Source: Octopus vulgaris
Lineage: Eukaryota
Direction: 5' to 3'
Length of the DNA stretch: 64,000 nucleotides
Assembly (NCBI GenBank): GCA_951406725.2
Contig: OX597814.1
Coordinates: forward strand, 108,562,001-108,626,000
This document shows, piece by piece, positions 1,120 through 56,736 of this stretch (position 1 is the first letter of the stretch; every line of letters starts with the position of its first letter). The position numbers and the translations under genes are program-made. A model generated the notes under the pieces. The model was not told where the DNA came from. It searched no databases and saw nothing but the letters and a program-made list of their open reading frames with translations.

Positions 1120-4100
1120 ATGGCTGTTTACGTTGGATGCATAAATGTGCGCGTCCTGGTAGCGAACTGGAAACAAGGTCGTTTTCTAAACGATATCAGG
1201 GCGCGGAACTTAAATGTAATTGTCGCTACTGAGACACGAATCGAAGGGCCAAGAGATCTACTCCCGCTCATGGAAGGCTACGAGAAATTTATTTCTCCTG
1301 GACGGCATGTGGGCGGGAGTGGGGTGTTGGTTCTGCTTAAAAAAGATAGTGTCGCAGAGAAAAAGTTGATTTTTTCTGATTCAGAAGGTAGGCTGGTCGT
1401 CTTAGATCTGACGTTCAGTTGTGGTAAAGAAATCAGGCTGGTGGCGGTGTATGCACCTAATACGGGTCAGACTGATTTTTATCGAGGCTTGGAGAAGTTT
1501 CTTGGCACGTCGAAATCCATAGTCATGTTAGGGGACTTTAATGCCATATTCGACGCGCGCGTCGATGGCATTGGCTCGAAAGATAGGAAACCAAACACTG
1601 GCTTCCGGGATCTACTGAGTCACTTTCAGCTGGTAGATCCCTACAGACTTGAATTCCCGAACGCTCCACAGTGGACGTGGCTAAGTGGCGACGGGTCTAT
1701 CGGGTCTTACATAGACAGAATTTTTATTAGAAAAATAGATAAAGGATTAGTTAAGTGTCCACAGTTTCACACGGTCAGTTACAGCGATCACAGGATGGTC
1801 ACTGGCGAACTGAACCTAGATAAGTTAGGTAGTAGGGGATCCGGCTACTGGAAACTCAATAAGTCCCTCCTGGCTATGGAGGAGTACAGAAAGCGGATCG
1901 AGTTAGTAGTGAAGAGGGCGTTAACCGGTTCCATTATTAACAACAAATGGTGGTACGCCCTCAAAAGAGCCATAAAATACGAGTCCGTTAGATACAGCAT
2001 AGGTCTAGCAACTAGCGGGCGTAAGAAAGAGATGGGGCTAGTTAAGGCCTTAGAGGAAGCCATGAGAGCTGGCGATGGGGCCCAGGTTAGGCTGAAGAGA
2101 CTGGAGTTGAACCAGCACCTCGAAGCCCAACATATGGGTTGTATCGTCAGAGCTAGAATTCGCGCAATGGGGTGCGAGGGTATCAGGGCTGCCGGATGGG
2201 CACGAGTTGTGGAGGCTCAACGTGGAAACGATTCCACAATTAAGTCTGTGACGAATGGGCGAGGTGATGTGATCACCGAACCAGAGGAGATGTGTCGGAC
2301 GTTTCAGGAGCACTTCGCTCGGCTCTTTGGGGGCGACGGCGGACCGGAGGAGAGGGTGGACCTAACGGACATCCTCGCCGGGCTGCCGCGCCTCTCGGGG
2401 CAGGATGCGGAGAGCTGTGAAGCGTTGATCTCGCCTGAGGAGATAGCTGAGGTCCTGGCCGACTGCGGTGAAAGCAAGGCGCCGGGGATCGATGGTTTAC
2501 CTTACGAACTATATAAAAGAATGCCAGACTTGTTCGGGAACGTGCTGGCCGGCGTTTTCACGAACTGGCGGCAGAATGGGTTCATTCCCAGATCTGTACG
2601 TCGGGGAGTGGTGACGCTGATCAGAAAGGACCCGAGCAAGGGGGATAACATAGACAATTTTCGGCCCATCACTCTGCTAAATACAGAGGTGAAGATTTTG
2701 GCCAAGGTGTTAGCGAAAAGGTTGACGCGTGTCGCGGGTGGTCTGATCGGGAAGGCACAAACTTGTGCGGTCCCAGGAAGAACCATCCAGGACAATCTTC
2801 ACCTAGTACGCTACACAATAGAGAGGTTTGGGAATGACTCTGGCAAGGGTGGGGCATTGGTCCATTTAGACCAGAGTAAAGCGTTTGATAGGGTGAACCA
2901 TCGGTACCTGGTGTCCGTGCTGGCGCAGTTCGGTCTGGGCATTGGCTTCCTCAGGTGGATCATACAATTGTACGATAACATCGACTCGATCGTTCGGGTG
3001 AATGGCTTCCTCTCGAGGCCGTTCCGCATCAAACAGTCTGTTCGTCAAGGGTGTCCGCTCTCCCCGATTTTGTATGTGATGGCTCTTGAGCCATTGCTGC
3101 GAAAGCTGAGCGCCATCCCGATGAATCCAGGAGGTGGAGGATCTGTGACATCGTATGCGGACGACATCACCATCATCGTGACCGAGGTGGAACTCCTGCG
3201 TAGTGTGGGAGATGCCATCAAGGCTTACGAGACGGTGACAGGAGCAAAGATTAACCGGGAAAAATCGGTCGGCTTGCAACTCGGCACCTGGAGGGGCAAG
3301 TCGATGCCTTCGAATAGCATCGTGGGATGCTGGACGGAGGGCCCGGTTAAGCTGCTAGGGATCTGGTTTGGTCCAGGTCTCCAGATAGAAAAGAACTGGT
3401 CTGAGGTGTCGGGCAAGGTGGCTCACGCGGTCGGGACTTGGTCCGGACGGTGGCTGTCCTTGAAAGGGAGGGCGGAGGTGGCCAATGTGTTTTTAGCATC
3501 GGTCATCACCTACCGCCTGACCGCCGTCCCTTGTCCGGATTCGTGGTTGAGCAAGTTGGAGAGACAGATCTTCCACTTTTTGTGGAAGGGAAGTGTTCCT
3601 CTTGTAAGACGTTCTATCTGCTGTCAGAAACCGTTAAAGGGTGGCTTGGGGATGCCTTGGCTGATGATGCGCAGAGATGCGCTGAGGTTAAGGCACCTTT
3701 GGCTCTACCTGGATGGTGAACGGGTGTGGTCCCCGCTTGCGAAGCAGATGTTCCCCAGCTTTGTCAGTTTCGGTGGCAGAGAAACCTGGTTTCGTCGCAA
3801 ACTTAGATCGAGCATGTGGTATTCGGAGTGCCATAAGGCACTCTGCCACTTCCGCAAGTCGGGCAATGCCGGCGGCTTTGGTACCACCGCAGCTTTTTAT
3901 AGCAGGTTGGTAGAGGCCGGAAATGACGATGCCTTGGGAAGGACCTTGGGCCTCGATAGAAATCAGTTGGACAGCCTGTTCCGAAGGACGTTCGGGCCGA
4001 AGACATTGGATAACTTCCAGAAGTCTTTGACCTGGCAATGTTTCAGAGGAGCTTTACCCGTTCGGGATAAACTCACAAGGCATGGTTGGAGTGGACCATC

Positions 4101-4506
4101 GAACTGCCCAAGATGCGAGCGGGATCTGGAAACAGTCTCGCACGCTATTGTTCAGTGTCCGAAAGTCTCGGACGTGTGGGTATATGTCGAACACCTGTTG
4201 TCGGACGGAAGAAGAGTACAGCTATCGGCTGAGACAATTATAAAAATTGACTCGCCTAGCTTTTTGACAAGTGAAGGTAAGCATTGCTTTCTCAGTACAG
4301 TAGCAGTAGCGAAAGAGTGTATATGGAAGACTAGAATGAAAGCGGTAAAGACAGGCACCGTGATCTCTGGCTCCGCCTTGGTGACCTATTTCAGGTTCCA
4401 CCTAAAAAGAAAGGTGGAGTTGGAGAAGAGGTGTCTGTCTGCGTGTGAGTTCGATAAAATATGGAAGCGTGTGACACGGTTGCTGCGAGTGAGAGGAGCC
4501 ACGTAA
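1120..4506 (+). CDS. Element A ORF2: apurinic-like endonuclease + reverse transcriptase + C-terminal zinc finger
   Basis: APE motifs CINVR, ATET, AVYAP, LGDFN, IDRIF, SDH; GSGYWKLN; RT motifs KAPGIDG, FRPITLLN, DQSKAFDRV, QGCPLSP, YADD; CPRC..ETVSHAIVQC; uninterrupted. Confidence 0.95.
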   Translation: MAVYVGCINVRVLVANWKQGRFLNDIRARNLNVIVATETRIEGPRDLLPLMEGYEKFISPGRHVGGSGVLVLLKKDSVAEKKLIFSDSEGRLVVLDLTFSCGKEIRLVAVYAPNTGQTDFYRGLEKFLGTSKSIVMLGDFNAIFDARVDGIGSKDRKPNTGFRDLLSHFQLVDPYRLEFPNAPQWTWLSGDGSIGSYIDRIFIRKIDKGLVKCPQFHTVSYSDHRMVTGELNLDKLGSRGSGYWKLNKSLLAMEEYRKRIELVVKRALTGSIINNKWWYALKRAIKYESVRYSIGLATSGRKKEMGLVKALEEAMRAGDGAQVRLKRLELNQHLEAQHMGCIVRARIRAMGCEGIRAAGWARVVEAQRGNDSTIKSVTNGRGDVITEPEEMCRTFQEHFARLFGGDGGPEERVDLTDILAGLPRLSGQDAESCEALISPEEIAEVLADCGESKAPGIDGLPYELYKRMPDLFGNVLAGVFTNWRQNGFIPRSVRRGVVTLIRKDPSKGDNIDNFRPITLLNTEVKILAKVLAKRLTRVAGGLIGKAQTCAVPGRTIQDNLHLVRYTIERFGNDSGKGGALVHLDQSKAFDRVNHRYLVSVLAQFGLGIGFLRWIIQLYDNIDSIVRVNGFLSRPFRIKQSVRQGCPLSPILYVMALEPLLRKLSAIPMNPGGGGSVTSYADDITIIVTEVELLRSVGDAIKAYETVTGAKINREKSVGLQLGTWRGKSMPSNSIVGCWTEGPVKLLGIWFGPGLQIEKNWSEVSGKVAHAVGTWSGRWLSLKGRAEVANVFLASVITYRLTAVPCPDSWLSKLERQIFHFLWKGSVPLVRRSICCQKPLKGGLGMPWLMMRRDALRLRHLWLYLDGERVWSPLAKQMFPSFVSFGGRETWFRRKLRSSMWYSECHKALCHFRKSGNAGGFGTTAAFYSRLVEAGNDDALGRTLGLDRNQLDSLFRRTFGPKTLDNFQKSLTWQCFRGALPVRDKLTRHGWSGPSNCPRCERDLETVSHAIVQCPKVSDVWVYVEHLLSDGRRVQLSAETIIKIDSPSFLTSEGKHCFLSTVAVAKECIWKTRMKAVKTGTVISGSALVTYFRFHLKRKVELEKRCLSACEFDKIWKRVTRLLRVRGAT

Positions 4507-4759: not shown

Positions 4760-6413
4760 TCGCGTTTTTTTTGCGCTCTGTAAAATTCGGTAAAAAGAAA
4801 AAAGAACAAAAAGTGAATGGTTGTTGGTGTAAAATTTTGAACATAGTTAATGCGGTTTCGCGTCTCACTGGTTCTGCGCGTTACACTTTTTCGGTTCGGG
4901 AGGCCGTTTTTCGGTCTGAGGCGACTATGAGCCGCCTCCATCAAGCGGAGGAGATGGAAGGGAGAATTTACTCTGAAATTTCGACGGAAGTATCGACATC
5001 TGAGGAGGAGTTGGCGGTGAAAAAGATGGAAGGCACCTACGCAGGTGTAACGAAGAAGTCAACGGAAAGAGAGATAGACCTGGCTAAGTTGGCGGGCCTC
5101 CAGGAGTTTGTGAAGGAGGACGAGAACGGTGAAGTTGAGCTGCTGCCTCCAGTAGGGCGCGGAGACTGGTTCCATCGTAGAACCATTAAATATAAAGTAT
5201 TTATGAATGGAGGTAGAAAGATGGAAGTAATTAACATGGAAGCAATTGAAGAGGCTCTCAAACAGACAGGAGAAGAAATTGTGTACATGACAAAAGGATT
5301 ACAATATGGAACCATAACGGTGCAATTTAAAAGTGAAAAGCAGCCAGGAATGTAGCAGCCAAGGTGGTGAGTACAGAAAAGATTTACTTGTTACCCTCGT
5401 ATCTGAATAGGCGGGACAACCAGAATTAGGGTGGAGGAATACCTCCACACCTAGAGGGCGAATTAATAACGGCTGCGGTTATAAAAGGAAATGAAGATAA
5501 AGTGGACATCCTCCACGCCATTATGAAATATGAAGGCGTGAGAGGTGCCACACTAGTTATGAACATTCAGCGGAGGCGGATGTTATAGAGAGGATTACGG
5601 ACAGTATAAAAACTGGAAATATTATTATGAGAGTGTGGGTGGAGGGTAGGGCGCCCAGGTGCTACAAGTGTGGCCAAAGGGGTCACATAAGAGCCTACTG
5701 CCCTCCCCCACCAAAGGAAAAAGAAAAGGAAAGCGTTGAGGAAGCCTCAGGAGAGGAAGAAAATAAACAGAAACAAACAGAGAAGGAAACGACAGAAGAA
5801 GAGGAGATGCAACAAGAGTGGAAAGAAGGGGGAACAAAGAGAAAAAGAAGGAAAAAGAAAAACTGTGCGAAGCCCCAACCCACCCCGACACCACCCATAC
5901 CCTTGGAGTCCCATCCTTCCCCTGCAAACAGTGATTCCACCCACTCCCCGCCTACAAGAAAAACAAAAACAGACACACAGAGCAAAGAAAGTCCCAAGAC
6001 CCATTTTTTATGTGTTATACATGGGAAAGACATACAAAACGTTAAAAAACGGGTGTTAACCAAGTGGTACGAACACGAAGATTGTAGCTACACGGCTGTG
6101 GATAGTGATGATACGGGTATATTGGCGAGAAGGTTTGAGGAAGAGGGTGTGTGTTGGAGGTCAGTGGAAATGAAAGATGAATGGATAGAGATGGCTAAAA
6201 GAAAAACGAATGTTGTGATAGGAAAAAAAGGAATACTAATTGGAAATGGGTGAAGAAGGACAGACAAGTGATGCTGGCGGATGGGGCCGTCGGTATCACT
6301 CTCATATATCATTTTCATATTCCATTTTGCTCATATATATGTAATTGTGATGTTCTATGTCCCCAATGTTTGTAACGTCCCCTCTATGTAGCCCCTAGTG
6401 GGTAATAAAGAAA
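4760..6413 (+). mobile_element. Element B: ORF1-only non-autonomous Tx1-like element
   Basis: Starts TCGCGTTTTTTTTGCGCTCTG like C; ORF1 homology only; ends GTCCCCTCTATGTAGCCCCTAGTGGGTAATAAAGAAA ~150 bp after ORF1. Confidence 0.85.
4927..6271 (+). pseudogene. Element B ORF1, split by several frameshifts (decay or assembly indels)
   Basis: Pieces 4927-5355 (TYAGVTKK, TKGLQYGTITVQFKSE) and 5627-6253 (VEGRAPRCYKCGQRGHIRAYC) are collinear with the C ORF1. Confidence 0.8.
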
Positions 6414-6431
6414 GAATGTAGAGAAAAAAGG

Positions 6432-8091
6432 TCGCGTTTTTTTGCGCTCTGTAAGATTCGGTAAAAAAGAACAAGGGGCGTTGTTGTTGTTGTGGAAATT
6501 CTGAACGGCGTTGACGCGGTTTCGCGTTTCGCTCGTTCAGCGCGTTACACTTTTTCTGTTTTGGCGGCCGTTCTCGGTCTGTCAGACAGAAGGAAATGGA
6601 CAACCCCAACCTGATGGGAGATACGGCTGCAGTTTTTGAGTCTTTAACAGACTTGTCTACGTCTGAGGAGGAGCTAGAAATAGCAGTGAGGAAAATGGAT
6701 CAGAAGCTGGGTTATACCTATGCCGGTGTAACCAAGAAGGCGGAAGAGAAAGGGGTCGACATGACCAAGTTGCCAAGTTACCAGAAATACATGAAAAAGG
6801 AAAGCGGTGAGGTGGAACTATCACCGACACCCAGGAGAAAAGAATGGTATGATAAGAGGACCATTGTTTACAGGGTGTTCGCAAACGAAAGGAAGAGGGT
6901 AGAAGTTGTAACCATGGAATGGATAGAGGAAGCCCTGCGAAGAACTGAGGAGGAAATAAATTTTCTGACTCGAGGATCCAAGTACGGTACCGTAGTTGTG
7001 CATTTCAAAACTGAGTCTGCAGCGAGGAAGATGGCGGCGAAGCCGGTGAAGTCAGAAAAGGTAACCCTATTACCTACGTATTTAAACAGGAAGATTACAC
7101 GAATAAGGGTGGAGGGAGTGCCACCAAACGTGGAGGCAGAATGGATTGTGGCGGCTGTGATCAGCGGCCACGAGGACGAAGTGGATATTCTCCATGCCTC
7201 GGTTAAGTCCGAGGGCTGGAGAGGCGTAACAGTGGAGCTGAACGTACAGGCAGAGACCGAGGTACTGGTGGACCTGACGGAAAGCATCAGACTGGGAGAC
7301 GTGGTCATGAGAGTGTGGGTGGAGGGCAGGGCTCCACGTTGTTACAAGTGTGGCCTGAGGGGTCACATAAGAGCCTTCTGCCCTCCCCCAGGGAAAGAAA
7401 TGGATTCCGAACCAGAGAGAGAGAAGCAGAAACCAGAGGAGAAGGAAACAAAGGAAGAGAATACACAGAAATGGAAGGAAGCTGGAAGTAAGAGGAAGAG
7501 AAGAATATGTGGAAAAAAAGAAAATAATATGGAACTCCAATCTACCCCAAAACCTCCCACACCCTCTGAGTCTCACCCTATCCATGCAGACATTGAACCC
7601 ACCCGCTCCCCCCCCAACAAGAAAACAAAAGAAAAAAAGAATACACACACACAAGAGATTGAAATCGAACCCAGGCCGTACATTTGTACTATGACTGAAC
7701 AGAAAGAAGTTAAAAGTCTAATGGAAGAGTATAAATGGTATGATGTTGGAGAGACTAGGTATGCTGTGATTGAAAAGAAGAACATAGGTGAGTTTATGGG
7801 GGGAGGTGAAAGATATAAGAATGAGCGATGAATTCGTGGAAAATATGAATGAGTATTTCGGAGTAAGAATGGATATGGAATTTATTCGTATTGGCAAAGA
7901 ACATTCAAGTGACTATGAAAAACAAAGGACAGGTAAGTGATGCTGACGGACGGGGCCGTTGGTATCGCTTTCATTTTATCATTTTTTTCGTTTAACAATT
8001 CATTTTCATAAAGTTTAATTATAATGTTCTATGTCCCCATGTTTTGTTATGTCCGCCATTCTTCGTAGCCCCTTAGTGGGTAATAAAGAAA
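6432..8091 (+). mobile_element. Element C: ORF1-only non-autonomous Tx1-like element
   Basis: 5' ~130 bp similar to B; single ORF1; ends GCCCCTTAGTGGGTAATAAAGAAA; no ORF2 sequence. Confidence 0.87.
6596..7831 (+). CDS. Element C ORF1 (411 aa; probably extends to TGA at 7940 if one G-run indel near 7800 is corrected)
   Basis: TRGSKYGTVVVHF, LLPTYLNRK, VEGRAPRCYKCGLRGHIRAFC; the alternative frame after the G run is open to ...RTGK*. Confidence 0.85.
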   Translation: MDNPNLMGDTAAVFESLTDLSTSEEELEIAVRKMDQKLGYTYAGVTKKAEEKGVDMTKLPSYQKYMKKESGEVELSPTPRRKEWYDKRTIVYRVFANERKRVEVVTMEWIEEALRRTEEEINFLTRGSKYGTVVVHFKTESAARKMAAKPVKSEKVTLLPTYLNRKITRIRVEGVPPNVEAEWIVAAVISGHEDEVDILHASVKSEGWRGVTVELNVQAETEVLVDLTESIRLGDVVMRVWVEGRAPRCYKCGLRGHIRAFCPPPGKEMDSEPEREKQKPEEKETKEENTQKWKEAGSKRKRRICGKKENNMELQSTPKPPTPSESHPIHADIEPTRSPPNKKTKEKKNTHTQEIEIEPRPYICTMTEQKEVKSLMEEYKWYDVGETRYAVIEKKNIGEFMGGGERYKNER

Positions 8092-8115
8092 TCAGATTTG
8101 AACATCTGGAGGAAA

Positions 8116-9885
8116 TCTATTTGCGTGTTGTTATCTGTGATTAGACGTTGAAATTTTGTTGTGTAAAGTGATTAATATCGCGCGAGGCGTTTGCCTCCAC
8201 GTGTGGAAACCTTCCGAAGAAGGTGAATTGACCCTCTAGTCATGGCGACTTACGCGGGGGTCACGGGAAAGAAAAATAATGATTCGTCGATAATCGTGAA
8301 GGATGTTTTCTTTGAGAAGAGTAAACTCAAAGAATATGAAAAGCTATTCAAAAGGGAGGGTGATAGCGTGAAGCTAATCCCCCCCGCGAAAGCAAAAGAG
8401 GACAAAGAAAACAAGACTGTAACATATAGAACACAAGACAAAAATACAAAGAAACTGGCAAGAGTGGAGATAGCAGAAATCGAAAAATGTCTGGGAGACA
8501 TAATGGGGAAATCGACCTACGTGAGTAGAGGCAAGAAATTTGGTACGGTGGAGGTGAGATGTGCAACGGAAGAAATTGCAGCCTCACTGGCTACCACTGT
8601 ACTAAGAGCGGAAACATTTATAATGTGGCCCTCATACAAGGGAAGAAGAGGGGTCCGGGTTAAAATCCCGAATATACCCCCAGAAGTAAAAACAGAATGG
8701 CTGGCAACAGCTATTCTAGGAGCAGCAGAAGAGGAAGTGGAGGTGGAATCCTTTAAGGAGTCCAACGCGATAAACTGGAGAGGATATGGGGTAGAACTGT
8801 GTTTGATGGCCACAAAAGAGGACATTGAAAGGTTCCCCTACAGAATAGAAATTGAAGATGAGAAAACCCTCAGTGTAATTGTAGAGGGAAGAAAGCCAAA
8901 CTGCTACTTGTGCGGGACAAGGGGGCACATTAAAAAAGAGTGCCCGTTATACGAATTCGTAGCGGAGTGCGAGCAGGAACTCGAAGAAAAGAAGAACACG
9001 GTAAATGAAAAAGAAAACATAGAAAAGGAAACAAAACAACAAGAGAAAGGAAATAATAAGTCAATGAAGGAAAAAGAAATAAAAGAAAAGAAAGAAATAG
9101 AACCAAAACAGAGTCAGGAAAAAAAAAGGAAAAAGAAACAACAGGAAAAAAACAAGAGAGAGATCAGAATCAAACGAAAAGAAAAGACGGCACACAAAAA
9201 GAAAAAGAAAAGGAACATAAAACACGAGAGAAAGAGAGAACAGACAAAGAACCAAAAAGACAAGAGAAGGAAGAGAAAGAAAAGAAGGCAAAAAGAGAGA
9301 AAGAGAGAAACAAAGAGAGGAGAACAAGGAAGAAATAAGCCCGAAAAGAAAAATGAAGGGAAAACGTAGGACGGAAACAAGATTACTGCTTCTACAAGTT
9401 AGTAACCTTCCATTTCTGCCCTGAAATGAAGAATTGACAAGTAATACGGAGGGACATGTGTGGGTCAACAGGATGACCGATCAGTGGCAGGAGACTGCTC
9501 TAATCCCCGAAGAAAGAGTCGCTGAGTTCCTCAGAGCTGCCGGTGAGAGTGTAACATTTTACACGAGTGTTCGAGTGAGAGAGCGGCTGCCTGAGGGCTC
9601 AGTGATAGACTTTAGAGAATTGAAAACTATCATGGAATATGTATAGAACTGTGAGAAGAGAGAGAAGAAAGAAGAGAAAAAAAAAAATATTGTGAAATAT
9701 ATGTGACGAAAATGTAACCTCTCGATTCCGGGGATCGAGTGGGCATTTACATCTCATTGTAAATATTCTTTCATATGTCATTTTTTACTTTTATTTTTTC
9801 CTTTTCTTGTCATTCGCTTTCTTATTTTAAGTTCCCCGATTGTATTGTCCCCTCTATGTTCGCCCCTTGTGGGTAATAATAAAAT
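8116..9885 (+). mobile_element. Element D: ORF1-only non-autonomous Tx1-like element with target-site duplication
   Basis: Flanked by CATCTGGAGGAAA at 8103-8115 and 9886-9898; ends GTCCCCTCTATGTTCGCCCCTTGTGGGTAATAATAAAA. Confidence 0.88.
8242..9369 (+). CDS. Element D ORF1 (C-terminus probably frameshifted in the A-rich tract; may continue to ~9646)
   Basis: MATYAGVT, SRGKKFGTVEVR, PSYKGRR, PNIPPE, VEGRKPNCYLCGTRGHIKKEC. Confidence 0.83.
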   Translation: MATYAGVTGKKNNDSSIIVKDVFFEKSKLKEYEKLFKREGDSVKLIPPAKAKEDKENKTVTYRTQDKNTKKLARVEIAEIEKCLGDIMGKSTYVSRGKKFGTVEVRCATEEIAASLATTVLRAETFIMWPSYKGRRGVRVKIPNIPPEVKTEWLATAILGAAEEEVEVESFKESNAINWRGYGVELCLMATKEDIERFPYRIEIEDEKTLSVIVEGRKPNCYLCGTRGHIKKECPLYEFVAECEQELEEKKNTVNEKENIEKETKQQEKGNNKSMKEKEIKEKKEIEPKQSQEKKRKKKQQEKNKREIRIKRKEKTAHKKKKKRNIKHERKREQTKNQKDKRRKRKKRRQKERKRETKRGEQGRNKPEKKNEGKT

Positions 9886-10108
9886 CATCTGGAGGAAATC
9901 AATTTTTTGCGTGTATAGTAAGTTATTATATTGTGTATATTTTCTCCATTGTGATCTACTGTGTGTCTAGCTGTCTTTCTGTGTTGTTGTAAAACTATTG
10001 AAGTCGGCCTTCGTGCGAGGGCTTCGTGTTGGTGTTTCCCCCTCCGTGGGGGAAAAAACTATCATTATCTTGGGTGTGCCAAGGGCTTGTTAAAGCCAGT
10101 TATCGGAG

Positions 10109-11104
10109 ATGGAATCCCCCATCTCGTATTCTCCTGTGACAAGTGATGCAGGATCACCGGCGGTGTCGCCAAAGAAAAAAGAGGCGGGGTCGCCAAAGGA
10201 AAAAGATATTCCAGCACCAGCGAGAAAATTTTCGGAAGTAGCTGGGAAGAAAATTAAAAAAATTAACGTGGACAACCTGGGAAAACATGCGGACTGTGTG
10301 TCAAAAGAGGGCACGGAAGTAACCGTGGCTTCAAACGCCCAAATACAGGAGGAAATTTCGAATAGGAGAATAATCTATAAGACATTCAGTATAACAAGCA
10401 GAGCAATACAAAAAATAGAGGAGAAAAAGATCGAAAACTGCTTAAAGCCGATAATGGATAAAATTACATATATCAATCGAGGGAAGAAATACGGCACAGT
10501 GGAGGTGAGATTCACATCAGAGGAGGTAGCGAAGAAGCTATCCATGGAACCCATAAAAGCGGAGGATATTGTTCTCCTACCCCTGTATAAAGGCAAGAGA
10601 ACTTCCAAGATCACAATGAACAACATTCCGCCAGAAGCGGATGCCGAAGTCCTGGTGGCAGCAGTTATGGTAGGCCTGGAGGAAAAAATAAACATCCTCC
10701 AGGCCACCGTAGAAGAAGAAGAATTCTGGAAAGGGCAAAAAATAATAATAGCCATACAAGCAGAAGTACAAACCCTGGAAGAGATCCCAGAGACTCTAAG
10801 GATAAGCGAAGATGAAAGAGTCACAGTCTTCGTAGAGGGCAGAAAGCCGAGGTGCTTCGGCTGCGGTAAGAAAGGGCATGTAAGGGCAGAATGCCAGCCC
10901 CAACCCAAACCGCAGGAAGCAGCTCAGCCAAGTGGAAAAGAAGAAGCCGTGTCATCAGAAACAGCGCTGGTCGGCCCAGGAGGGTCGACTGAAGGTGTGG
11001 AGGTGACAGAGGCAGCGGAACCAACGGAGGAGGAAAAAAAGAGCGAGGAAACGAAAAAGGAGGAGGGGTGGTCAAAAATCACTAGAAAAAAAAAGAAAAA
11101 CTGA
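10109..11104 (+). CDS. Element E ORF1 (true end probably near 11430; frameshifts in A runs)
   Basis: NRGKKYGTVEVRF, LLPLYKGKR, NIPPE, VEGRKPRCFGCGKKGHVRAEC; closest to the A ORF1. Confidence 0.85.
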   Translation: MESPISYSPVTSDAGSPAVSPKKKEAGSPKEKDIPAPARKFSEVAGKKIKKINVDNLGKHADCVSKEGTEVTVASNAQIQEEISNRRIIYKTFSITSRAIQKIEEKKIENCLKPIMDKITYINRGKKYGTVEVRFTSEEVAKKLSMEPIKAEDIVLLPLYKGKRTSKITMNNIPPEADAEVLVAAVMVGLEEKINILQATVEEEEFWKGQKIIIAIQAEVQTLEEIPETLRISEDERVTVFVEGRKPRCFGCGKKGHVRAECQPQPKPQEAAQPSGKEEAVSSETALVGPGGSTEGVEVTEAAEPTEEEKKSEETKKEEGWSKITRKKKKN

Positions 11105-11434
11105 AACCACCCCTCCCAAAGTAAACCAAAAAAAAAAAAAGGAGTCATTGAACTCATTTATGGCCGTTAAGGCCACGAACAATAGACTCGGAAATGTGTT
11201 GGTAGCGATGGCCAAAGTAGAAAAAATAGGAGGAAAAACGACTATGTTTTGTACAGAATAGGCCGGAAGGATTACGGACGGATAAAGTCCGAATTTTTCC
11301 ATGACGTAGGCCCGCTCAGAATGGATATAACATCTCCATATATATTCGAGGGCCTGCGTCAGACTCCCCCACGAGGCCCAGAAAAAGAGAAGGAAGAAGA
11401 AGAAAAAACCGAACCACTGATATAAAGGTAAGTA

Positions 11435-14400
11435 ATGGATTACATTTATGTTGGTTGTTTGAATGTGCGCGGCCTAGGGAGCAGGCTGGAAGCAAGGTCG
11501 CTTCCTGCATGATATCAGGTCGCGTAATTTAGATGTTATTGTTGCTACAGAAACCCGGTTAGAGGGGCCAAGAGGTCTACTCCCGCTGTTTGACGGCTAC
11601 GAGAGTTTTTTCTCTCCTGGCAGTCCTACAGGCGGGAGTGGGGTGTTGGTCCTATTAAAAAGAAACCGGGTTTCTGAGAAAAAGTTAATTTTTGCAGATC
11701 CAGAAGGTAGGCTGGTCGTCATGGATTTGACGTTCAGTAATGGTAAAGTTATCAGACTGGTTGCAATTTACGCACCCAACCATACAGGGCAAAGTGATTA
11801 TTTTCGTGAACTAGAAAACTTTCTTGGTACTTCGCATTCATTAGTGGTGCTAGGAGACTTTAACACAATTTGCAAAGCGGATGTAGATTATGTTGGCTCG
11901 TGTCCAGATAGAAAAGGCAACAGTGGCTTCATGGAACTGCTAAGCCGCTTTGAGCTAGCAGATCCTTATAGGCTGGAATTTCCGAACGCTCCATTGTGGA
12001 CATGGTCAAACAGCGACGGATCTTCCAGGTCATATTTAGATAGAATACTAATTAGAAAAGTAGACAGTAAAATAGCTAAGTGTCCACAGTTTTACCCGAT
12101 CAGCTACAGTGATCATAAAATGGTCACTTGTAAGCTTGACATAGATAAGGTTAAAAATAGAGGATCCGGTTACTGGAAACTTAATACGTCCCTTTTGGCG
12201 ATTAAGGAGTACAAAGACCGGATTAGGAATATAATTCAGAGGGCACTATCTGGTACCATCATTAATAACAAATGGTGGTACGCCCTCAAACGAGCCATCA
12301 AGTTTGAGTCTATTAGATATAGCATAGGAGTAGTGGCTAGAGAGGCTAGAAGGGAAACTACTCTAGTTAAGGAATTAGAGGAAGCCATGAAAACTGGCTC
12401 TGCGGCTCAGGTGGCGTCCAAGAGACTGGTGTTAAACCAGCACCTCGAGGCCAAACACATGGGCTGCATTGTCAGGGCTAGAATCCGTCATATGGGATGT
12501 GAAGGAATCAACGCCGTGAGATGGGCCCGAGTGGTGGAAGCTCAGCATGGTAACGATGCCACGATTCGATCTTTGACGAACCAACAAGGTGAGTTGATAA
12601 ACGAACCCGAGGAGATGTGTGAGGCCTTTCAGGAGCACTTCGCTCAGCTTTTCGGTGAGTGCGGCGGACTGGATAGGAGGAGGGCCTTTACGGACCTACT
12701 CGACGGTCTGCCGCGCTTATCGGGGCGAGATGCGGAGGGCTGTGAAGGGCCAATCACGCCTGAGGAGGTGGTTGAGGCAATGGCGGACTGCGGCGCGGGC
12801 AAGGCGCCGGGTTTGGATGGTCTACCCTATGAGTTATATAAGAGTATGCCAGACTTGTTCGGGCACCTACTGGCGGAGGTCTACGCGAACTGGCAGCAGA
12901 ACGGGCTTATACCCAGATCTGTGCGCCGGGGAGTAGTGACTCTCGTCAGAAAGGACCCGAGCAAGGGGGAGTGCATTGATAATTTCAGGCCCATCACTCT
13001 GCTAAACACAGAGTTGAAGATTTTGGCCAAAGTGTTATCGAAAAGATTGGCGCGTGTCGCGGATGGTCTGATCGGAGGGGCACAGACATGTGCCGTTCCG
13101 GGCAGATCCATTCAGGATAATCTCCATCTAATGCGGTACACTATAGAGGGGTTTAATAGTGATTCTGGCAAGGGTGGGGCACTGGTCCATTTAGACCAAT
13201 CTAAAGCTTTTGATAGGGTCGACCATCGTTACCTGGTATCTGCCCTGGCACAGTTCGGGCTGAGCCTTGGCTTCCTCAGGTGGATTATCCAAATTTATGA
13301 TAACATCGACTCGGTAGTTCGGGTGAACGGCTTCTTGTCGAAGCCGTTCAAAATCAAACGCTCGGTTCGTCAAGGGTGTCCGCTCTCCCCGCTTTTGTAC
13401 GTGATGGCTCTTGAGCCATTACTGCGAAAACTGAGCGGCATCCCGAGACAGCCAGGTAACGGAAAATCAGTGTCAGCGTACGCGGATGACATCACCATCA
13501 TCGTAACCGAAATGGACCACCTATGTAAAGTAGGCAAGGCCATAGAGGTTTACGAGACGGTGACAGGAGCAAAAGTTAATCGCGAAAAGTCAGTCGGCTT
13601 GCAACTCGGCACCTGGAGAGGCAAGTCGATGCCTCCTGACAGCGTCGTGGGACGTTGGACGGAGGGTCCGATTAAACTGCTAGGGGTCTGGTTCGGTCCA
13701 GACCTCCAAATAGAGAAGAATTGGGGCGAGGTAACGAGCAAGGTGGCTGCAGTAGCCAAGACCTGGTCTTGGCGGTGGCTATCCCTGAAAGGGAGGGCGG
13801 AGGTGGCCAATGTGTTTATCACATCGGTTATCACCTACCGCCTTTCCGTCGTTCCTTGCCCTGATTCGTGGTTGATCAAGTTGGAAAGACAGCTCTTCTA
13901 CTTCTTGTGGAAGGGCGGGAAACCACTTGTGAAACGCTCTACTTGCTGTCAACAACCGTTAAAGGGTGGGCTAGGGATGCCTTGGCTGATGATGCGCAGA
14001 CATGCGCTGAGGTTAAGACATCTGTGGCTCTACCTGGATGGTGAACGGGTGTGGTCTTCGCTAGCAAAACTGATGTTTCCCAAGTTCACTAGTTTCGGTG
14101 GATGGGAAACCTGGCTGAATCGTAGATCGAAACTTGGTACTTGGTACACGGAGTGTCGCAAGGCTCTCCTGCTATTCCGTCGCTCGGGCAACGCCTGCGG
14201 TGGGGGTTCCACCACATTCTTCTATAGAGGGTTGGTAGAGGCGGAATGTGAAGATACCTTGGGGGAAACCCTAGGTCTCGACGATAATCAGCTGGCCAGT
14301 CTGTTCCGACGTACGTTCAAGCCGAGGACACTGGACAACTTCCAGAAGTCTCTGGCATGGCAATGCTACAGAGGAGCTCTACCTGTTCGGGATAAACTCG

Positions 14401-14831
14401 CAAGGCACGGTGGCCAAGACAGTCCGATATGTCCAAGATGCGGGCGGGATAGGGAAACCGTCCCGCACGCTATTGTTCATTGTCCGGACGTGTCTGAGGT
14501 GTGGGTTTATGCCGAACAGCTGTTGTCAGGTACACGAAGAGTACAGCTGTCGACTGAGTCGATTACAAAAATTGACCCACCGGATTTCCTCGTGAATGAA
14601 GGTAAGTTTCGTTTTCTCGTTGTAGTAGCAATTGCGAAAGAAGTGATATGGAAGACGAGAATGAAAGGTTTACAGTCAGGCAAGTTCATCTCCGGCCCTG
14701 GTTTGATGAATTACTTCATCTTTCACCTGAAAAGGAAGATAGGGCTGGAGAGAATATGCCTGACTAGGAGAGTGTATGAAGAACGATGGAAGGATGTAGC
14801 ACGAAAGTTGCGAATGAAAGTTACAACATAA
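11435..14831 (+). CDS. Element E ORF2 (APE-RT-zf); one apparent frameshift near 11480
   Basis: ATG at 11435 gives MDYIYVGCLNVRGL, matching A's MAVYVGCINVR; a shifted frame gives WKQGRFLHDIR and joins the 1062-aa ORF containing GDFN, SDH, QGCPLSP, YADD. Confidence 0.9.
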
Positions 14832-15076
14832 ATGTAATACCAAGTGCAACCAAAAGTATCAGTGGGGAGGCGGGGCTCGTGGGGTCCGAGCTGAACCCGC
14901 ACCCACTCCATCTGTAATGTCTTCCGGTCTATTCCATCATTCGATTTTGTGTGTATTCTTGTAATTTCATGATATTTTTAAATCCGATTTTTGTGTAAAA
15001 ACCATCCGTATGTCTGACCCCAAATCAGATTGTTTTGTCCCCTCTATGTTTGCCCCTTGTGGGTAGTAATAAAACA

Positions 15077-15400
15077 ATCTGGAGGAAAGCACCATCGAGA
15101 AGTGTCTTGGTGCGACTATGAAAGATATCTAACCAGAGGCGGTAAATTCGCCACAATAGAAGCAAGGTTCGAGTCAACGGAGCGTGCAAGGGAGTACTCG
15201 ACTCGAACTTGCAAAGTGGAAATATTTTATTTTTACCTTTATATCTGGGACGTAGGACGTCCCGGAAAAAAATTTTAATGCCCCCCCACCCCGAAGTAGA
15301 GGTAGGTTGGATTGTAGCCACACTTCTATACAAGAGGGAGGACAAGATACAATTGATCGAAATTACAAGAGACGGGCTAACAATTCCAGTCTGTGAATAA
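15077..15400 (+). pseudogene. Decayed ORF1 remnant of an older related element; insertion target of D and E
   Basis: LEESTIEKCLGATM, YLTRGGKFATIEARFES, LFLPLYLGRRTSR, PEVEVGWIVA all match ORF1 blocks of A-E, with frameshifts. Confidence 0.8.
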
Positions 15401-20527: not shown

Positions 20528-20758
20528 GGCGGCAAGCTGGCAGAAACATTAGCATGCCGGGTGAAATGCTTAGCAGTATTTCGTCTGCTGTTACGTTCTG
20601 AGTTCAAATTCCGCCAAGGTCAACTTTGTCTTTCATCTTTTTGGGGTCGATAAATTAAGTAACAGTTATGCACTGAGGTTGATGTAATTGACTTAATTCC
20701 TTTGTCTGTCCTTGTTTGTCCCCTCTATGTTTAGCCCCTTTTGGGCAATAAAGAAATA
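20528..20758 (+). mobile_element. SINE with Nin/Deu-like central domain and a Tx1-type 3' tail; 18-bp TSD
   Basis: GGCGGCAAGCTGGCAGAA head, GAGTTCAAATTC B-box-like, CTTTCATC.TTTGGGGTCGATAAATTAAGT core; AGAATAAGTAYCAGCCTT at 20501-20518 and 20759-20776. Confidence 0.8.
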
Positions 20759-41231: not shown

Positions 41232-41517
41232 ATATGGTTGTGTGTCTGTTTGTCCTTCCCAACATCGCTTGACAACCGATGCTGGTGTGTTTACGTCCTC
41301 GTCACTTAGCGGTTCGGCAAAATAGACCGATAAAATAAGTACTAGGCTTACAAAGAATAAGTCTTAGGGTCGATTTGCTCGACTAAAGGCGGTGCTCCAG
41401 CATGGCCGCAGTAAAGTGGTTGAAAAAAGAAAAGAAAAAGAGCTTTATTTTGAGGGATTCGTTTTGGATGTAATGTGTGTGTGTGTTATTATTCCTAAAA
41501 CACATCAATACACGTAC

Positions 41518-43241
41518 ATCAAACGCTCGGTTCGTCAAGGGTGTCCGCTCTCCCCGCTTTTGTACGTGATGGCTCTTGAGCCATTACTGCGAAAACTGAG
41601 CGGCATCCCGAGACAGCCAAGTAATGGAAAATCAGTGTCAGCGTACGCGGATGACATCACCATCATCGTAACCGAAATGGACCACCTATGTAAAGTAGGC
41701 AAGGCCATAGAGGTTTACGAGACGGTGACAGGAGCAAAAGTTAATCGCGAAAAGTCAGTCGGCTTGCAACTCGGCACCTGGAGAGGCAAGTCGATGCCTC
41801 CTGACAGCGTCGTGGGACGTTGGACGGAGGGTCCGATTAAACTGCTAGGGGTCTGGTTCGGTCCAGACCTCCAAATAGAGAAGAATTGGGGCGAGGTAAC
41901 GAGCAAGGTGGCTGCAGTAGCCAAGACCTGGTCTTGGCGGTGGCTATCCCTGAAAGGGAGGGCGGAGGTGGCCAATGTGTTTATCACATCGGTTATCACC
42001 TACCGCCTTTCCGTCGTTCCTTGCCCTGATTCGTGGTTGATCAAGTTGGAAAGACAGCTCTTCTACTTCTTGTGGAAGGGCGGGAAACCACTTGTGAAAC
42101 GCTCTACTTGCTGTCAACAACCGTTAAAGGGTGGGCTAGGGATGCCTTGGCTGATGATGCGCAGACATGCGCTGAGGTTAAGACATCTGTGGCTCTACCT
42201 GGATGGTGAACGGGTGTGGTCTTCGCTAGCAAAACTGATGTTTCCCAAGTTCACTAGTTTCGGTGGATGGGAAACCTGGCTGAATCGTAGATCGAAACTT
42301 GGTACTTGGTACACGGAGTGTCGCAAGGCTCTCCTGCTATTCCGTCGCTCGGGCAACGCCTGCGGTGGGGGTTCCACCACATTCTTCTATAGAGGGTTGG
42401 TAGAGGCGGAATGTGAAGATACCTTGGGGAAACCCTAGGTCTCGACGATAATCAGCTGGCCAGTCTGTTCCGACGTACGTTCAAGCCGAGGACACTGGAC
42501 AACTTCCAGAAGTCTCTGGCATGGCAATGCTACAGAGGAGCTCTACCTGTTCGGGATAAACTCGCAAGGCACGGTGGCCAAGACAGTCCGATATGTCCAA
42601 GATGCGGGCGGGATAGGGAAACCGTCCCGCACGCTATTGTTCATTGTCCGGACGTGTCTGAGGTGTGGGTTTATGCCGAACAGCTGTTGTCAGGTACACG
42701 AAGAGTACAGCTGTCGACTGAGTCGATTACAAAAATTGACCCACCGGATTTCCTCGTGAATGAAGGTAAGTTTCGTTTTCTCGTTGTAGTAGCAATCGCG
42801 AAAGAGGTGATATGGAAGACGAGAATGAAAGGTTTACAGTCAGGCAAGTTCATCTCCGGCCCTGGTTTGATGAATTATTTCATCTTTCACCTGAAAAGGA
42901 AGATAGGGCTGGAGAGAATATGCCTGACTAGGAGAGTGTATGAAGAACGATGGAAGGATGTAGCACGAAAGTTGCGAGTGAAAGATACAACATAAATGTA
43001 ATACCAAGCGCAACCAAAAGTATCAGTGGGGAGGCGGGGCTCGTGGGGTCCGAGCTAAACCCGCACCCACTCCACCCGTAATGTCTTCCGGTCTGTCCCA
43101 TCACTCGATTTCTGTCCATTTATTGTAATTCATGAAAATTTTAAAACCCGATTTATTGTAAAAACCCATTCGTTTGTCTGACCCCATCATCAGATTGTAT
43201 TGTCCCATCTATGTTCGCCCCTTGTGGGTAATAATAAAACA
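41518..43241 (+). mobile_element. 5'-truncated copy of element E with a perfect 16-bp TSD
   Basis: Near-identical to 13353-15076; ACATCAATACACGTAC at 41502-41517 and 43242-43257; one-G deletion near 42427. Confidence 0.95.
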
Positions 43242-43365
43242 ACATCAATACACGTACGTTTATGTATTTGTCAATTTATATATAAAAATAATTTAACAGG
43301 AAACTGATTACTCAATACTTTTTAGTTGAGTACATCTTTTATTTAAGTTTTACAAAGGAAAAGAG

Positions 43366-53802: not shown

Positions 53803-55683
53803 TAATGGAAAATTATAGAGGTGAACTCTTTTCAAGAAACAACAGTGTAGGGCTCAATTTATTGAACAATTAGATTAAGGTAGCAAAGTACTGAAGGCAT
53901 TAAAGTATACCGTAATATATATCTTCATCTTCATCATCATCATTTAATGTCCGCTTTCCATGCTGGCATGGGTTGGATGGTTCGACTGGGGACTGGCAAA
54001 CCAGGAGGCTGCGCCAGGCTCTAGCCTGATCTGGCAAGGTTTCTACAGCTGGATGCCCTTCGTAATGTCAACCACTCCAGTGTAGTGGGTGCTTTTTACA
54101 TGCCACCAGCACAGGGATCCAGTCAGGTGGCATTGGCACTGGCCATGTTCAGATGGTGCTTTTTACATGCCACCAGCACAGGAGCCAGTCAGGTGGCACT
54201 GGCATCGACCATGCTCGAATGGTGCTTTTAATGCATCACTGGCACAGGAGCCAGTTAGGCGGCACTGGCATCAGCCATGTTTGAATGTGTGTATGCGTGT
54301 GTCTTTATGCTTGTTTCCCTCCACCACCACCACCTCACAACCAGTGTTGGTTTGTTTAACTGAATGGTTCTTTTATCTTTCACCTGTTTTAATCATTAGA
54401 CTGTGGCCATGCTGTGGCACCACCTTGAAGAATTTTAGCTGAATGAATCAGTCCCAGTGCTAACTTTTTTTTAAAAATAGTACCTATTCTATCAGTTGCT
54501 TTTACCAAACCACTAAGTTATGTGGACATAAACGCACCAACACCAGTTGTCAAACAGTAGTGAGGGACAAACAAAGAAACATACACACAGACATATGACA
54601 GGCTTCATTCAGTTTCCATCTTCCAAATCCATTCCCAAGGCTTTGGTTGGCCCAAGGCTATAGTAGAAGACACTTACCCAGGGTGCTTTGTAGTAGGACT
54701 GAACCTGGATCATGTGTTTAGAAAGTTTCTTACCACACAGCCACGCCTGTTTAAATTTAGGTTATAAGTTTTTATTTTTTTATGTAAATGATTAATGGTT
54801 AATATTTTAATATTATTCTGTTTTTTTCTTTTTGTTTTCCAGATTTTCATGGCATGATGACAGATTCTTGAGAGAAATAATAGCAGTATGTGATACAGGT
54901 GCATGAATCTGGTGCCACAGTTAAGCCCTAAAATATTTCACATGATCTTAACATGAACCCTAAATACTTCAGCCCTGAAAAGTTATCTACCCTTAGAATA
55001 TAGTTCAGATATATTTCAATAATGCAGAAATAACAAGAGCACTCAGAGTGCAAACCTCCGCCCAAGGCAACACCAATGTCCTCTCAACAATTAGCCAGAG
55101 ATGATTTTTAGAATGAGAATATCTGAAATAAACTCAGCTACTCTCACAAATGAGAATGCTAAAAATGAACCCGACTGCTCTCAAAAATTAAGTAAAAAAT
55201 AGGAAAAATAATCCAGAATCCTTGTCTGATACTGGATCAATCCCAAAATCTAATCAGTTTGTACCAGTTACGAGGCCAAACATTCCTGAAAGTTTCATTC
55301 GAATCCATCCAGCTGCTCTTGAGATATCTTGTCCATGGACAAACAAACAAACACGACTGAAAACAATACCTCCGCCTTCGCTAAGGCAGAAGTAATAAAC
55401 CTTTAATTATCATGGCTTTGAATTTGCTTGGTTTTATATACTGATGCCAAATCCCCCGAAATCTAATGCAGTATATATATTTATACATTGTAATGTAGAT
55501 GTAATAGTGAACAACTTAAAGGTCACATGACTTATGAAATGAATCAGAACAATATATTTAGCTGTTAGTGTGGTGTGGAGGAGGTTAGTCGCCATTTTAT
55601 AGTGTTTTTATGTAAATCATTCTAACTTCCATTAGTACAGTGATAGACATTGAAGTACTAAATGTAATTTGACCTTAATAATT

Positions 55684-56736
55684 ATGGATAAGAGAAAGAT
55701 TGATGAGGTTAATTCTGGTGTTAAGAGGAGGAGGAAAGTGTTAACTCTGGACAGTAAACTGGAAATTATAAAAAGACATGAACGTGGTGAGAGTAAAGCA
55801 AAAATAGGACGAGATTTAGGAATGAATGAGTCGACTGTGAGAGCGATTCTGAAGAAGATTGATGACTATAAAGAAAAAGGTAAAGTAGCGTCAACTTTGG
55901 GTCTGCAAACAACAAGGAATAGAAGTCGGATTATGATTGAAATGGAGCATCTTTTGTCTTTGTGGATTGAAGATTGCAACCTTAAGCAAATTCCTCTAAA
56001 CACCATGACTATTAAAATGAAAGCTTTAAATATTTTCTCTGCAATTAAAAGAAATTTAACGAAAGAAAATGAAATTCTAACAGCAGCCGAAATGAAAGAG
56101 ACTTTTACTGCTAGTTCTGGTTGGTTTGAGAGGTTTAAAACTCGAACAGGGATTCACAATGTTCGTATAACAGGGGAGGCTGGCTGTGTAGACAAATATA
56201 CAAGAGACAAAGATCCAAACACTTTTAAAAAAATAATTGAAGAACGAGATTATGATGACAAACAATTATTTAATACTGATGAAATGAACTTATATTGGGT
56301 AAAAATGCCTTCGAAAACGTTTTTAATAAAGAAAGAAAATATACAAAAATCACAACCTTTGCTTGGTTTTGATGAAAAAGACGATAGAAATGATGAGGAT
56401 TTGTTTGAACCTCATTCAAAAGAATTAAGTGATGATGAACTCCTTAATTTAGATCGGGAGTGTGTGTACAAAAAAGCAGTCGGTCAAGCGGGCGATAAAG
56501 AGGAACAACAAAACATAGAAATTTCTGTAAAAGGACTTGATACAATGTTTCAAGAATTTGAAAAATTCAAACAGTTAATAATGGATATTGACCCTAACAT
56601 TGAAAGAAGAACAAAAGTTCAGCAGAACTTGGACAATGTACTGTCTTGCTACAAACAGATCCATGCAGAGAAAACGAAAGAAAACAATAAAAACGGAACA
56701 CAAATGACTTTGGATAAGTATTTTTCAAAGAAATAA
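55684..56736 (+). CDS. pogo/Tigger (CENP-B/TIGD-like) DNA-binding protein, 350 aa, lacking most of the DDE domain
   Basis: RRKVLTLDSKLEII...MNESTVRAILK (CENP-B N-terminal HTH), EMEHLLSLWIED...FTASSGWFERFK (second HTH), QLFNTDEMNLYW, then directly an acidic Tigger-like C-terminus; no stops. Confidence 0.82.
   Translation: MDKRKIDEVNSGVKRRRKVLTLDSKLEIIKRHERGESKAKIGRDLGMNESTVRAILKKIDDYKEKGKVASTLGLQTTRNRSRIMIEMEHLLSLWIEDCNLKQIPLNTMTIKMKALNIFSAIKRNLTKENEILTAAEMKETFTASSGWFERFKTRTGIHNVRITGEAGCVDKYTRDKDPNTFKKIIEERDYDDKQLFNTDEMNLYWVKMPSKTFLIKKENIQKSQPLLGFDEKDDRNDEDLFEPHSKELSDDELLNLDRECVYKKAVGQAGDKEEQQNIEISVKGLDTMFQEFEKFKQLIMDIDPNIERRTKVQQNLDNVLSCYKQIHAEKTKENNKNGTQMTLDKYFSKK

Follow-up and report, generated by a model that had tools for sequence, protein, structure and literature searches.

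The window analysed here is a stretch of 64,000 nucleotides (nt) of the Octopus vulgaris genome (contig OX597814.1, positions 108,562,001 to 108,626,000, forward strand). At this locus, a single copy of a Helitron-type repeat, called the host here, holds five long interspersed nuclear elements (LINEs), A to E, not two (Table 1). The 5' half of the host lies just before base 1 of the window, sequence resembling open reading frame 1 (ORF1) is found upstream, beyond A, B and C, at L031:9500-9537 (L numbers denote loci), and the host copy stops at 15394, its last ~180 nt with the hairpin and the CTAG end being missing. A, B and C all finish in one common 3' tail; B, C and D contain ORF1, lack ORF2 and have a 3' tail in common with an autonomous LINE. 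The 16-nt repeat behind B and upstream of A is likely the duplication made by B. D differs by 0.45-0.6% from copies at three other loci and E by 0.5% from the copy at L136. ORF2 of E comprises an endonuclease, a reverse transcriptase and a zinc finger and is frameshifted near 11476, where the extra base is absent from the contigs of four other sequencing runs; the contigs compared carry the labels of three organisms.

Table 1. LINE units, host segments and duplications in the window (locations are window positions unless another locus is named)
Feature	Location	Strand	Remarks
Element A	starts before the window at L031:9538, to 4761	+	autonomous L1-group/Tx1-type LINE, ORF1 and ORF2 open
ORF2 of element A	1120-4506	+	open frame; A is the 5'-most unit of the array
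Element B	4762-6414	+	ORF1-only unit, ORF1 frameshifted at this locus
16-nt copy of host sequence	6415-6430	+	second copy just 5' of A, one difference
Element C	6431-8093	+	ORF1-only, open frame of 438 codons, weak zinc-knuckle match
Host sequence AGATTTGAAC and first 12-mer	8094-8115	+	12-mer at 8104-8115
Element D	8116-9886	+	ORF1-only, ORF1 from 8242, zinc knuckle
Second 12-mer	9887-9898	+	spacer between D and E
Element E	9899-15076	+	full-length LINE, ORF1 10109-11104, ORF2 11435-14831
Third 12-mer and 3' part of the Helitron-type host (ORF1 scrap)	15077-15394	+	12-mer at 15077-15088
E-family copy outside the host	41502-43257	+	5'-truncated; 16-nt duplication at 41502-41517 and 43242-43257

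The Pfam domains Exo_endo_phos, RVT_1 and zf-RVT were found in A and E, which corresponds to an apurinic/apyrimidinic (AP)-type endonuclease and a C-terminal zinc finger, and the best solved-structure match of ORF2 of A is human L1 ORF2p (E-value 4e-66). The domain zf-CCHC scores above the cut-off in D and weakly in C and E, and atlas neighbours have it as well. A CCHC knuckle in ORF1 is a feature of the Tx1 clade. Protein searches returned no named Tx1 relative; the elements are placed in the L1 group by protein match, and the name Tx1, which is provisional, follows the original prediction.

The 12-mer ATCTGGAGGAAA is present three times, before D, between D and E and after E, and occurs at no other site of the window with up to one mismatch. 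Shuffled windows contained it 0.33 times on average, and three occurrences were reached in none of 100. Removal of D and E joins RFEHLEESTIEKCLG (assembled by eye), which is ORF1-like as the original prediction had stated; the TC with which this string opens belongs to element C, as the last two bases of its tail. The corresponding segment of empty host copies is 32-43% identical to ORF1 of A, C, D and E over 75-125 residues, the best match being E (about 1e-17 to 1e-22). The claim that two different elements used one cut site within ORF1-derived sequence is thus borne out. The target had been regarded as the ORF1 of an older resident relative; its ORF1 origin stands, but it is not a resident element. 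The sequence is a scrap of a Tx1-type ORF1 that lies within a non-autonomous Helitron-type repeat and is found at 907 empty sites genome-wide (551 and 356 with two exact patterns).

Helitrons are characterized by a 5' TC after A, a 3' hairpin and a CTAG before T. Empty host copies form a repeat of about 1.0 or 1.6 kilobases (kb) with ends of this type: inspection of 30 copies by eye revealed the 5' motif in 26 and the 3' hairpin in 22, with CTAG followed by T in 16 of the 22 hairpin-bearing copies, and the folding z-score of the hairpin is -5.3. When the tail of E and its downstream flank were used as query, the same junction was recovered at 40 scored places, and a junction pattern identified 129 occupied junctions genome-wide. 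The tails at 100 listed junctions among these were of E-type (65), A/B/C-type (28) and D-type (7) by hand count. Among 49 occupied flanks, 47 are Helitron-type, two are cut short and none is of the native family type. The loci are spread along the contigs and are not telomeric. At L116, L250, L251 and L057, the host is used at a second site, the 3' boundary of the captured scrap, where D-like partners and an older lineage related to E are stacked with a spacer of their own.

Site preference was assessed with every E-type tail listed for contigs C1-C3 (53 in total), of which 36 are young (at least 95% identity over at least 300 nt) and 17 are older or short. Behind 33 of the 36 young ends lies the host site or a copy of the spacer, which is not the case for the other three; one of the 17 older or short ends lies at the host site, and one more at the second site in the same host. 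According to the passages of Kojima (2015; PMC4494074) on target specificity, a LINE is target-specific if more than 20% of its flanks fall in one sequence type, a share that young E-type ends exceed. For 23 of 29 terminal E copies, a relative within 1.0% is found elsewhere, whereas the mean difference among 49 occupied hosts is 5.6% (taken from a set without inflation by the cut-short host of L107) and the minimum 0.9%, and distances between elements and between hosts are not correlated (Mantel r = 0.10, p = 0.27). The elements are much younger than their hosts, and the insertions are therefore independent. A 3' transduction of E together with host sequence was rejected, since among the loci listed the 5' parts of the host are present upstream at L104, L110, L111 and L112, each with its own deletions; L106 has no upstream 5' part. 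Outside the host, all seven loci of young or very short E copies start with AC-N-T and have little else in common, which suggests a short core preference; loops of the endonuclease are described to shape target choice in the part of the literature considered here (PMC1950540). All 37 classifiable occupied hosts belong to the short subfamily (12 more could not be classed), as compared to an estimated 52% of the empty sites, based on two samples in which 6 of 28 and 18 of 18 classifiable copies were short. Long host copies possess the same core and are no more diverged than short ones; however, they account for none of the 37, and local sequence alone therefore fails to explain the choice. That long hosts are converted to short-looking ones during insertion is not supported: the 3' parts of 45 of the 49 occupied hosts are short-type or mixed, and those of the remaining four are mostly long-type, as in some short empty copies.

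The 12-mer was expected to be a target duplication and not a constant part of the element termini. Both hold in part. A target-like block of 12-20 nt rides with the 5' ends of elements (L135, L136 and recurring variants), and the 12-mer is therefore no plain duplication. The ATCTGG variant, on the other hand, is found in four of 200 empty sites among those listed and in all three copies of the window, and was thus duplicated locally. Duplications of truncated or off-host copies are mostly 16-19 nt long (range 10-21 apart from repeat-inflated values), those of full-length D/E copies 12-15 nt. The off-host locus L135 contains two E copies, 97.3% alike, each with a 20-nt host-like leader behind a 16-nt duplication, and the downstream copy is nearer to that of L136 than to its neighbour. 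The spacer of L136 is a hybrid: its first five bases are local, the rest is the L135-type leader. By eye, the upstream flank of L135 contains CCAAT-like and E-box-like motifs and a TATA-like motif with two mismatches at about -38 to -40. Several spacer variants recur, each at two to four unrelated loci, and 46 of 67 hand-coded D/E spacers in 33 arrays are unlike the local host 12-mer; this tally leaves out array C10, the two-host stretch L264-L265 and A/B/C-type junctions. The commonest recurring variant occurs together with its upstream tail at L107, L119, L121, L128, L143 and C10; we assume that it resembles a YY1-type motif and might act as a start-site element of the unit that follows. The first base of visible leaders lies about 29-31 nt behind a TATA-like box of the host, and many first junctions of B/C-type show a fixed deletion of 8 base pairs (bp). 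It is likely that the 12-mer is a longer duplication, which was trimmed where the target-like leader of the element pairs with it. The enzyme of the E lineage is proposed to nick the bottom strand at the AC-N-T start, with a top-strand nick about 16 nt further downstream. Full-length RNAs would start in upstream target sequence, so that the end of the complementary DNA (cDNA) could pair with the 16-nt top-strand overhang; trimming of the unpaired cDNA tip would leave 12-15 nt and may sometimes write the leader variant of the donor into the new site. The ORF1-only units B, C and D likely borrow ORF2 via the common 3' tail.

Taken together, D and E are Tx1-type elements at one site of an ORF1 scrap that a Helitron-type repeat bears in about a thousand genomic places. 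Their insertions were probably successive, E preceding D, which would have used the 5' junction of E. Every 5' junction would rebuild the target, which could then be reused, and arrays would extend toward their 5' side; for the window, the proposed order of arrival is E, D, C, B, A. D/E units in arrays are separated by the target duplication, and an identical non-host variant precedes divergent units seven times at L108, five times at L147, three times at L118 and at others. The L118 variant is tied to one E subfamily and was copied before two D units upstream, and unit 1 of L108 differs by 0.11% from a unit of L153 that bears another spacer. Such runs favour the view that newcomers enter at the 5' junction of an element already present, and they are the only array-order signal that discriminates between 5' and 3' growth. 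In arrays with both classes, A/B/C-type units are followed by D/E-type units at 11 loci including the window. From the TATA-like box of the host, the distance is 36-39 nt to the D/E site downstream and about 30 nt to the A/B/C junctions, and a TATA-like motif is present at -34 to -27, one of six windows tried, in seven of 15 A-lineage sites compared to 1.5 in shuffles (p = 0.0005), and in one of nine older sites. A second, A-type lineage likely has its own landing site 5' of the D/E site, about 30 nt past the TATA-like box; its insertion would shift the D/E site away from the box and so yield the observed order of the classes. At L117, L145 and L154 and at L120, L121, L143 and L154, certain C-type 3'-tail variants abut either a next unit that is truncated at a constant internal point or a 70-nt host repeat, which suggests insertion into a resident unit with loss of its 5' part. 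A very young unit family of ~1.8 kb (L109, L141, L142, L143, L149, L151), 0.06-0.2% apart between most loci, is mostly found near the 5' end of arrays; the reference units gave no match to it.

Several observations weigh against this model of sequential 5' growth. Among the units listed, those nearer the 5' end of an array are not consistently younger. Variants precede host-like spacers in six of six mixed arrays, an order that 3' growth followed by decay also predicts, and near-identical neighbours (0-0.3%; L120, L142, units 3-4 of L147, L153) fit local duplication equally well. The diverged array C10 breaks the order of A/B/C-type before D/E-type units. E-type off-host sites lack the TATA-like motif at -34 to -27 and at -42 to -35 (none of six), and among off-host duplications one is only 10 nt long and one was not found. 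The model also offers no explanation for the exclusive use of the short host subfamily.

Four other explanations were considered. It had originally been supposed that the enzyme recognizes the ORF1 of related Tx1 elements; the Helitron would then be incidental. This would agree with the position of the site in ORF1-derived sequence, with a surviving donor family (five loci with full ORF1, 74-80% identical to the scrap at the DNA level, ORF2-like sequence behind ORF1 in four) and with the finding that for about one in three of 30 A-type 3' ends, judged by eye, the sequence behind them is the 5' region of another element or is found as such elsewhere. However, native ORF1 is not represented among the 49 occupied flanks, the five native copies, a small sample, are all uninterrupted at the site, although their sites differ from the host core in 2-4 of 12 bases, and no array unit at the sampled loci is split at the homologous position of ORF1. 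Together with the avoidance of long hosts despite their identical core, this makes targeting of the own family improbable. Still less credible is that the Helitron copied arrays as cargo from a few founder insertions, the common site being inherited and not re-targeted. Occupied hosts belong almost wholly to one subfamily and some unit orders recur (L141, L142), as cargo would predict; but elements that are 0-0.1% apart occupy hosts that are 3.5-5.8% apart, hosts with a single insert contain different families and the content of arrays varies at nearly every locus. Spread of the composite by the Helitron was rejected on the comparison of element and host divergence.

A coupled insertion of D and E had also been proposed, and one event by template jumping or read-through RNA, or the multiplication of units by unequal crossover, could account for the frequent lack of a visible duplication at A/B/C-type junctions and for neighbours that are nearly identical. 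It is nevertheless unlikely: the local 12-mer, a rare variant, divides D from E, both have close relatives elsewhere beside other neighbours, no D+E pair elsewhere matches both window units, and the two copies of L135 are too divergent. A serious possibility, a little short of probable, is that the D/E site is set mainly by an active promoter of the short host or by pairing of the RNA leader, while the endonuclease contributes a four-base preference only. The restriction to short hosts, the spacing between the TATA-like box, the site and the visible leader starts, and the AC-N-T starts outside the host point in this direction, whereas the presence of the TATA-like box in long hosts and its absence from E-type off-host sites do not. 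This would refine the sequential model rather than replace it. In a further extension, which we regard as doubtful, the Helitron would have turned an ORF1 scrap into a dispersed promoter and landing pad, behind whose TATA-like box two LINE lineages and their ORF1-only dependants compete; a newcomer would take over the transcription start, push older copies downstream and bear within its RNA a heritable pad segment by which it is guided to similar pads, and only the subfamily without the donor's own 5' region would be used.

Each separate ingredient of the system has a published precedent. The closest parallel is R1 of Drosophila. Its tandem arrays are explained by Stage and Eickbush (2009; PMC2718515) by new copies that enter the duplication on the 5' side of an element already in place; for melanogaster-type R1, transcripts that include upstream target sequence are proposed there to anneal and to give a fixed deletion of 9 bp, as compared to 8 bp at B/C-type first junctions. 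In both systems, head-to-tail copies are separated by a duplication and target sequence is carried along to off-target sites. In contrast to R1, which as described there uses 28S ribosomal DNA, one type of locus, the octopus target is a dispersed transposon-borne scrap; moreover, several families use one site, the units are mostly ORF1-only, spacer variants are heritable and the protein is of the L1 group. The octopus D/E system works like R1 but is not R1. Tx1L in Tx1D of Xenopus, Tx1-Mar and SINEU in Mariner-N4_AMi and Tx1-9_AMi in Harbinger are likewise Tx1-type LINEs and non-autonomous partners that favour one site in a non-autonomous DNA transposon (Kojima 2015; PMC4494074); the passages considered name no Helitron target, and the octopus system differs from the cases they describe by its Helitron-type host, a target site that descends from the lineage of the LINEs themselves, the occurrence of 9-10 units per array and partners that encode ORF1. 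Non-autonomous LINEs that retain ORF1 are exemplified by HAL1, HeT-A and Ag-Sponge (PMC5786205, PMC5537684); as far as the parts considered describe them, they also combine ORF1 without ORF2 with a tail common with an autonomous partner, and HeT-A forms head-to-tail arrays. Unlike those of HeT-A, the octopus arrays are non-telomeric, internal and flanked by a split host element. For R2, an upstream 28S leader in the 5' RNA is postulated, in the part of the source considered, to anneal and prime the second strand (PMC3774820), which resembles the target-derived 5' RNA sequence proposed here, although endonuclease class and target are different. LINE copies of Zepp of green algae build up in clusters of their own kind (PMC3446292), as one nested cluster per chromosome in the account considered, whereas many ordered arrays per contig are found in octopus. 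Among the titles and abstracts listed, none describes a LINE targeting a LINE-derived ORF1 scrap spread by a Helitron; subscription papers, Repbase or supplements may hold such a description. The words 'target' and 'nested' do not occur in the main text of a 2026 paper on octopus repeats (PMC13282606).

Further observations concern related repeats. The truncated E-family copy outside the host is absent from a contig of run X9, an empty allele in which 41501 is directly followed by 43242 and the duplication is single. A-lineage and older copies recur at other common flanks (L207, L210, L217, L221, L223, L224, L231, L259), some with ORF1-like sequence behind them, which points to further array systems. 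Units B-E of the window show no excess of A-to-G differences; in contrast, unit 7 of L121 (D-type; 12389-14141 of the oriented, extended stretch) has 48 A-to-G versus seven other differences to five relatives, as would be expected if RNA editing had been fixed by reverse transcription. An abundant repeat resembling short interspersed nuclear elements (SINE-like) shares the tail motif of the LINEs (L031:555-790, many copies at L124, window 20734-20751). Positions 55654-56736 (+ strand) of the window contain an open frame of 360 codons, which we take to resemble the N-terminal part of a Tigger/pogo-type transposase.

With about 900 empty and more than 100 occupied copies of one site, the system provides a large natural data set on the joining of LINE 5' ends, a poorly understood step. 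The unequal use of host subfamilies with the same core bears on site choice beyond the endonuclease, and the spacer variants record donor and insertion order. Here, one transposon builds a niche for another from that other's own sequence.

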